Shown: positions 14,361 to 14,697 of the stretch, one piece after another
How the letters are laid out: each line of letters begins with the position of its first letter
Numbering within the stretch: the stretch's first letter is position 1
Source: Pseudogymnoascus verrucosus
Taxonomy: Eukaryota
Assembly (NCBI GenBank): GCA_001662655.1
Contig: KV460235.1
DNA: 64,000 nucleotides
Direction: 5' to 3' (one strand)
Made by a program: the position numbers and the translations under genes
Notes under the pieces: generated by a model
The model's database searches: none
What the model saw: only the letters and a program-made list of their open reading frames with translations
What the model was told of the DNA's origin: nothing

Positions 14361-14417
14361 CTTGTGTATGGTATAGTGGGCTAGATGCCCAATTCTCTTG
14401 GGTCCATGGTTGTATAT
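14361..14417 (-). pseudogene. Decayed 5' half of a 5S rRNA gene
   Basis: cttgtgtatggtatagtgggctagatgcccaattctcttgggtccatggttgtatat aligns without gaps to 11174-11230 with 10 mismatches in 57 nt by my count. It shares the flank TAACTCTCATAT with the intact copy. Confidence 0.88.
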
Positions 14418-14697
14418 CCAGTAACTCTCATATCGAGCTACATATAAGAGACGAGAGCGCATTTGGACTCTACCACAGGGATATAGTTCAACGTCTACTA
14501 GCGACCAAAGTATCATTTTCTCATCGCAACGTTGTAGGTAAGGGTAAGGGAAGCTTTGCGCCAGATTAGGCAAGGCAAAGGTGCGACAAGGACACAAACT
14601 TAATCAAGTCGAGAAGCAAAAGGTAGAAGCAGTAAGTGGAACGTGCTCACAGTGGGCATATGTTTAAACTTCCACTAGCACTGAGCCTGAGTCCTAA

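Follow-up and report, generated by a model that had tools for sequence, protein, structure and literature searches.

The closest described systems are the Starships, recombinase-driven elements that can insert into the 5S rRNA genes of fungi. In the main survey, 5S rDNA accounts for 23% of 222 curated Starship insertion sites and offers at least five distinct internal target sites; elements that target the 5S gene have direct repeats of 6-16 bp at their boundaries, and the target of the Enterprise type has a palindromic core (PMC11162782). Voyager, from Macrophomina phaseolina, is described as inserting always 20 bp into the 5S gene, which is predicted to kill the copy (PMC9156397). In Aspergillus fumigatus, a hotspot rich in 5S genes holds several Starships, most of them inside 5S copies, together with fragmented 5S sequences, and Starships can carry 5S copies and nested insertions (10.1101/2024.06.28.601215). 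Among the tabulated elements, the one on Af293 Chr3 carries its repeat at 639099-639106 and, 40 nt beyond it, an inverted repeat; its DUF3435 captain starts at 639407 on the same strand and belongs to fam06, the Enterprise family. In table S7 the entry 'aagccaca' occurs 28 times as a direct repeat, and twice in reverse complement, for elements on both strands (PMC11162782). Since 'aagccaca' occurs in one form for elements on both strands, the repeat is evidently written in the orientation of the element.

Small RNA genes are also used as stable integration sites by the bacterial tRNA-gene integrative elements, which leave a displaced gene fragment at one end, carry an integrase and rebuild the gene. 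Furthermore, the 5S pseudogenes of A. nidulans, which Borsuk and colleagues are said to have described in 1988, reportedly consist of 5' halves that all break off at one position, with unrelated sequence after it. For P. verrucosus, the starfish tables list 8 predicted Starship recombinases, one of them of fam06, and no element with boundaries, and in table S8 all 9 Pseudogymnoascus rows examined have an element count of 0 (PMC11162782). Here we analyse a stretch of 64,000 nt from contig KV460235.1 of Pseudogymnoascus verrucosus (assembly GCA_001662655.1), referred to as the window, in which two 5S copies are broken at almost the same position.

The 5S copies of the window

The window holds a small 5S cluster, with three copies on the same strand within 10 kb. 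A blastn search within the window, with the intact 5S gene plus 300 nt of each flank as the query (word size 7, E <= 10), gave three real extra 5S matches and two chance-level ones (E 7.1). All 5S pieces are on the minus strand. The intact gene, at 11111..11230 (-), matches Rfam RF00001 with 74.2 bits (gathering score 38, E 7.7e-14). Another copy was split recently. Its 5' half at 10044..10100 (-) covers 5S positions 1-57 with 1/57 mismatches (blastn match 10044-10102, 98.3% over 59 nt, E 2e-18), and its 3' half at 4477..4540 (-) covers positions 57-120 and is identical to the intact gene at 64/64 positions (blastn match 4459-4540, 94.0% over 84 nt, E 8e-25, the similarity of the flank continuing to 4459). 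Even this young 5' half reaches just 11.2 bits with the 5S covariance model, in a match that covers model positions 1-57 and is truncated at its 3' end.

The third copy is represented by a relic 5' half at 14360..14417 (-), which corresponds to 5S positions 1-58 and differs from the intact copy at 10/58 positions (blastn match 14360-14440, 80.5% over 82 nt, E 1.7e-14). A first-pass annotation of the window had described it as a decayed 5' half with 10/57 mismatches, in the same orientation as the other copies, and both blastn and the alignment in register agree with this description. A repeat search of the window recovers the same three 5' halves, at 100, 98 and 78% identity. In register, the 10 mismatches of the relic are 8 transitions (5 of the type C>T/G>A and 3 of the type T>C/A>G) and 2 transversions, and some of them may be due to a different starting variant, not to age. 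Repeat-induced point mutation (RIP), for which we looked for an excess of C>T/G>A, raised TpA/ApT and lowered (CpA+TpG)/(ApC+GpT), was rejected as the cause of the decay: only 5/10 changes are C>T/G>A, 3 go in the reverse direction and 2 are transversions, and the indices around 14360 are unremarkable.

The relic is not a full-length 5S gene, for its similarity to the intact copy ends at C58 (14360) and the 3' part of the internal control region is absent. In type 1 pol III promoters, this region (box A/IE/box C) lies in the 3' part of the 5S gene. The idea that the relic is a 5S-derived SINE was dropped after inspection, as this 3' part of the internal promoter region is not there. When the Rfam 5S model was run on 14360-14445 alone, no 5S match was found at E <= 10, and hence none at the gathering score of RF00001. 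Since the covariance model does not see the relic, it is identified through its similarity to the resident gene, and we regard it as a pseudogene fragment that can be recognised, from the sequence, by this similarity only.

The similarity extends into the flanks. Upstream of the relic, at 14418..14449 (-), lie ATATGAGAGTTA and a TCTTATA box, which are common to the intact copy as well. The flank that the annotation had reported as shared with the intact copy is indeed the same: its plus-strand form TAACTCTCATAT, of which ATATGAGAGTTA is the minus-strand form, occurs at 14422-14433 and at 11236-11247 with 12/12 identical positions, and in the repeat search the two flanks are 82% identical over 22 nt. 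Upstream motifs of about 35 nt are found in all three 5' parts (10101-10135, 11231-11262 and 14418-14449), the flank of the intact copy being intermediate between those of the other two, and about 20 nt of downstream flank are common to 5S copies (4459-4476 and 11091-11110). The similarity of the flanks extends for about 35 nt on the upstream side and for about 22 nt on the downstream side. A larger duplication around the 5S pieces was considered and rejected, as a self-blast finds the 5S pieces and a 160-nt tandem repeat only.

The 3' half that should belong to the relic was searched for in two ways. The 200 nt that follow the old break align to the missing 5S part no better than shuffled sequences do (1112/2000 shuffles reach the observed score). 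In 1276 sliding windows of 200 nt, taken from both strands, the highest score apart from those of the two true 3' halves is 16, whereas about 40 would be expected of a copy at 82% identity. Thus the earlier finding that the window has no decayed 3' half is confirmed by blastn, shuffles and sliding windows alike. A resemblance, seen by eye, of GGTGTGGATTATGAG after the old break to 5S positions 67-79 was discarded because its alignment is at chance level.

A common breakpoint inside the 5S gene

The 5' half of the young copy ends at G57 (10044) and its 3' half starts at position 57 (4540), so that the two overlap by one base. The relic ends at C58, which is 1 nt from the young break; the annotation had placed the end of the relic within about 2 nt of the 4540/10045 breakpoint. 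In the intact gene, this position is the centre of a 12-bp near-palindrome, CACAAG|CTTGAG, at 11168..11179 (.), with a perfect core of 8 bp, CAAG|CTTG. The arms match at 4/4 and 5/6 positions (10/12 over the 12 bp), which makes it the best palindrome centre in the 5S gene, the next best reaching 4/6. The dyad 57|58 is the end point of both broken copies, that is, 2/2 of the broken 5S copies of the window end there. By our own estimate, a random end would fall within 1 nt of the other in about 3% of cases (3 of about 90 detectable end positions). This coincidence suggests targeting of the same site, although it falls short of proof.

An internal 5S site such as this one is a typical kind of target for a Starship family. 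In the Rfam alignment, AAGC of the consensus aligns with CAAGC at the break of the window. The direct repeat AAGCCACA is presumably part of the Aspergillus 5S gene, at a position that would be homologous to the break. If both the alignment of AAGC and this assumed position of AAGCCACA hold, then AAGCC-type Starships sit at the homologous site and are read in the sense of the 5S gene, and under the same condition the captain of AAGCCACA-type elements, which starts about 0.3 kb past the upstream repeat, adjoins the 5' part of the 5S gene.

On these grounds the locus can be compared with the known systems. With the Enterprise-family Starships of Aspergillus (for example Osiris navis of A. fumigatus, with the repeat AAGCCACA(CG)) it shares the insertion at a homologous 5S position (AAGC, about 55-58), the repeated use of one site, the clustering of intact and fragmented 5S genes, and a copy that is split into intact halves. 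Unlike these elements, the window has no DUF3435 captain in the expected place and no terminal inverted repeats, and the direct repeat is at most 1 nt, compared with 8-10 bp. The 5S insert, at 5.5 kb, is also far smaller than the hotspot Starships of A. fumigatus, for which sizes of 47.5-151.6 kb are given (10.1101/2024.06.28.601215). The host differs too: Pseudogymnoascus belongs to the Leotiomycetes, and the 9 rows examined in table S8 hold 0 elements for it. A single fixed position inside a 5S copy is a feature of Voyager and other 5S-targeting Starships as well, but Voyager sits 20 bp from the 5' start of the gene and has a repeat of 11-12 bp, whereas in the window the break is at 57/58 and has no repeat. 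As with the bacterial tRNA-gene elements, a conserved small RNA gene serves as the site and a displaced fragment is found at one end; in contrast to them, the window has no integrase, and a rebuilding of the gene is a minority reading (see below). The ends of both 5' halves at a common position (57 and 58) recall the pseudogenes of A. nidulans. There, a conserved block is said to follow the truncation, while the corresponding stretches of the window, 9894-10043 and 14210-14359, are unrelated to each other.

Search for a responsible element

We scanned 439 ORF translations of the window against Pfam and found 0 matches to the DUF3435 captain. They comprised, on the left, 124 ORFs of at least 65 aa in 1-24000 and 98 of 30-64 aa in 4400-10300, as well as 59 of at least 25 aa in 12700-14700 (at E <= 1) and 158 of at least 85 aa to the right of 24000. 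In particular, the ORFs scanned include no captain in the place where the AAGCC-type layout would have it, at a distance of about 0.3-3 kb from the 5' part of the relic.

The DNA that abuts the two 5' halves was compared directly. For 9894-10043 against 14210-14359, shuffled sequences reach the observed score in 165/500, 996/1000 and 255/1000 cases. Altogether seven end-to-end comparisons were made for shared element ends, and none is significant after multiple tests; the best, between the left end of the young insert and the old end in reverse complement, is reached by 16/500, 91/1000 and 625/1000 shuffles, depending on the scoring. Neither the GC composition nor the RIP index shows a step at 14360. 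What is visible in the window cannot be called a Starship, since captain, direct repeats and inverted repeats were all looked for and not found, and the DNA to the left of 14360 is ordinary, gene-bearing DNA with no recognisable element end.

The insert between the young halves, at 4541..10043 (.), is 5.5 kb long and has no recombinase. The two halves have at most 1 nt of direct repeat in common (only G57), and inverted repeats at the ends of the insert are not significant (353/500, 864/1000 and 226/1000 shuffles reach the score). A motif CTAA(TA)GTTAAA near both ends was tried as an inverted repeat and was likewise not significant against shuffles. By inspection, the ends also do not fit a Helitron-type insertion (TC...CTRR between A and T). 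In P. australis, the relative of a 148-aa ORF of the insert (see below) and the homologue of a small gene next to the relic are on different Mb-scale contigs, from which we conclude that the young insert is displaced DNA.

Within the insert, two adjacent gag-like stretches at 5430-6100 (weak match to Pfam Retrotrans_gag, E 4e-4) seem to be the remains of an internally duplicated retroelement gag. They are followed by a tandem array at 6206-6628, with a unit of about 160 nt in about 2.6 copies that are 92-94% identical. Next comes an ORF of 148 aa with a signal-peptide-like start at 7594-8037, which is part of a 187-aa ORF at 7477-8037 that has no match to any Pfam family. The exact sequence of the 148-aa ORF is in the protein collection, and its 90% cluster has 19 members, of which 11 are named and come from 11 Pseudogymnoascus strains. 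Several members of this cluster are on very short contigs (657-3835 nt), as if they were flanked by repeats. An ORF at 8565-8921 (-), with many AT-rich codons and no Pfam hit, resembles by eye what we take to be the C-terminal part of a fungal AAA ATPase, and is probably a pseudogene relic.

Neighbouring genes and synteny

The left part of the window holds an MFS transporter at 248 to about 1800 (+) and an RPE65-type dioxygenase at 2386-4274 (+). Between the intact 5S gene and the relic there are two genes. A mitochondrial phosphate-type carrier at 11515..12822 (-) is recognised by Pfam Mito_carr in two ORFs (E 2.9e-12 and 5.5e-25), and one source gives a fragment of it the name 'solute carrier family 25 phosphate transporter 3'; it sits between the intact 5S gene and a conserved gene of 74 aa at 13286..13507 (-), which is the first gene to the left of the old break. 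The exact sequence of the 74-aa protein is in the protein collection, 70 of 72 candidates are homologues of it at E <= 1e-3, and the atlas assigns it to an Ascomycota cluster with a score of 0.97. Its homologues are spread across the Pezizomycotina (Leotiomycetes, Dothideomycetes, Orbilia and Aspergillus), and in P. australis the small gene is present twice (ACLOAV_004913 and ACLOAV_007822). A tree of the 74-aa protein, for the distinction between an extra and a core copy, has 74 columns and leaves 29/66 inner branches open.

To the right of the relic, the first gene is an MFS/TRI12-type transporter at 14701..16630 (-) (Pfam TRI12/MFS_1); between its stop codon and the relic there are about 280 nt. 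It belongs to the 90% cluster of VE01_05147 (P. verrucosus), which has 21 members. Further to the right are an amidohydrolase_2 gene (18119-19070) and a GMC oxidoreductase (19838-21778), and from about 23 kb onwards genes of a housekeeping type, such as an INO80-type SNF2 ATPase, ELP3, the mu subunit of an AP complex and a succinyl-CoA ligase. The dioxygenase, the amidohydrolase_2 gene, the GMC oxidoreductase and the two MFS transporters may form one neighbourhood of aromatic-compound catabolism and transport that flanks the 5S cluster.

Synteny was probed through protein names and locus tags; of ten guessed ORF fragments, two are in the collection. The right-hand transporter has relatives of at least 90% identity in five named Pseudogymnoascus genomes and a relative of 75% in a sixth. 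No orthologue of it is listed for P. australis or for VKM F-4281, and both have the left-hand small gene. The draft contigs of the VKM and VE genomes may break at 5S repeats, so a location on different contigs says little there, while the Mb-scale contigs of P. australis carry some weight. Read in this way, the synteny of protein names is compatible with a boundary near 14360 and does not distinguish which side has moved; the data fit a variable content around the 5S cluster.

Origin of the relic

The reading that we consider most likely, and to which we give about an even chance, is that a 5S integration hotspot was hit twice in a site-specific manner, the relic being the trace of the older hit. 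We favour it because two of two copies end at a palindromic dyad that is homologous to a proven target of Starships. The recombinases predicted for P. verrucosus, with one of fam06 among them, and the displaced DNA of the young insert also speak for it. An integrating element of the 5S-targeting Starship kind would have cut the relic copy at the CAAG|CTTG dyad, between positions 57 and 58, and the neighbouring 5S copy would have been struck at the same dyad much more recently; the order of the two events we infer from their mismatches, 10/58 against 1/57. The orphaned 5' half would have kept only part of box A and none of the boxes further 3', and with only this part left it would have decayed neutrally to 83% identity, while the recognisable parts of the element and the 3' half would afterwards have been lost or moved. 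Presumably, it was a tyrosine-recombinase element that made the break. The partner of the old junction is absent from the window, and an insertion at that point is our interpretation. As the 74-aa gene and the carrier occupy the place of the captain, either the element has disappeared since the hit and left the orphan half behind, or the agent was of another kind. The suggestion of the annotation that an earlier insertion had hit the same 5S site therefore holds in part: the two of two ends at 57/58, the dyad of the palindrome and the alignment of the AAGCC repeat speak for the site, whereas the hallmarks of an inserted element are missing.

The annotation had also proposed that bases 1-14360 could all be cargo of a larger, older element, that is, that one large old element sits at the relic 5S gene and extends to the left past the window, with the 3' half and the captain outside and with the transporter, the dioxygenase, the split 5S gene and its insert, the intact 5S gene, the carrier and the small gene as cargo. 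The absence of a 3' half from the window would follow from this, and the capacity of Starships to carry 5S copies and nested insertions is in keeping with it. The genes to the left of 14360 are of an accessory type or possibly extra copies, as the two small-gene copies of P. australis illustrate, and P. australis has the small gene and no listed orthologue of the right-hand MFS transporter. On the other hand, the idea of cargo finds no support in the window itself, which has no DUF3435 gene and in which the inserted ends are dissimilar and without inverted repeats. There is no shift of composition or RIP index at 14360, and what lies beside the break is the phosphate carrier and a small gene that is conserved across the Pezizomycotina. 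Both sides of the break, with the RPE65-type gene on one and the amidohydrolase_2 and GMC oxidoreductase genes on the other, look like a single aromatic-catabolism and transport set. The annotation expected a 3' half followed by a captain; this is opposite to the documented layout, where the captain of AAGCCACA-type elements would adjoin the 5' part, and no captain is there in the window. An AAGCC-type captain would be expected on the minus strand between 14360 and 11400, where we see only the small gene and the carrier. The large element would thus need the opposite orientation as well as features outside the window, and we think it unlikely.

It may also be that there was no mobile element at all, and that a deletion or rearrangement, perhaps through breakage at the palindrome, removed the rest of the relic copy, the shared split point then being due to fragility or chance. 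The hallmarks of an element are found at neither junction, the DNA beside the old break is normal genic DNA, and the young insert resembles a patch of ordinary or relic DNA, not a transposon. Such an explanation has to accept that both of the broken copies end within 1 nt of each other, at a site whose homologue is a proven target of recombinase-driven elements elsewhere; moreover, the young event is a clean insertion of 5.5 kb with halves that are intact to the base, which a deletion cannot make. For these reasons we hold it to be rather unlikely. A further scenario, which we regard as very improbable, is an integration that restores the gene. Here, a segment of 3.2 kb (11174-14359) with the carrier and the small gene would have brought along a promoter flank and 5S positions 1-57 and thereby rebuilt what is now the intact 5S gene, so that the relic would be the displaced half of the resident gene. 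Indeed, the intact gene is the next 5S on the side of the missing 3' half and has the same orientation, the window contains no further 3' half, the flank of the relic is nearer to that of the intact copy (12/12 plus the TCTTATA box) than the flank of the young copy is, and the pair of carrier and small gene is possibly an extra copy, given the two small-gene copies of P. australis. Yet the 3.2 kb have no recombinase, the proximal flank motifs are common to all three copies, as is expected of a family with conserved promoter flanks, and no gene was restored by the young event, which struck the same site. Furthermore, no such element is described in the parts of the Starship literature that were examined. 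If it were true, this would be a cassette without a captain that leaves the host with a working 5S gene, a eukaryotic counterpart of bacterial tRNA-gene integration.

Taken as an older hit on the hotspot, the relic is a new instance of a known phenomenon, the 5S-targeted insertion, and its value as a candidate target site is modest. CAAG|CTTG at 57/58 is a concrete candidate for such a site in Pseudogymnoascus, a genus that includes relatives of the bat white-nose pathogen, and split 5S copies are possible anchors for finding the boundaries of elements genome-wide in this genus. Some caution is needed, for a 5S half alone is no marker of a large element: here, the place expected for the captain holds ordinary conserved genes.

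Further observations

An ORF of 645 aa without a Pfam match lies at 54042-55976 (-), far to the right of the 5S cluster. An 'integrase' of 466 aa (P0239) falls into one 90% cluster with a 56-aa homologue of the small gene; by eye it is of the bacterial phage type, and we rejected it as a candidate, since the grouping is probably an artefact of the clustering.

Some sources give homologues of the small protein the name 'mitochondrial phosphate carrier', and the small gene and the carrier seem to be adjacent in other fungi too. The longest contig is 3,548 nt both for a small-gene homologue that is 93% identical (P0001) and for the carrier fragment (P0246). This length is close to the 3.1 kb that separate the intact 5S gene from the relic, as if the pair were bounded by repeats in a relative.
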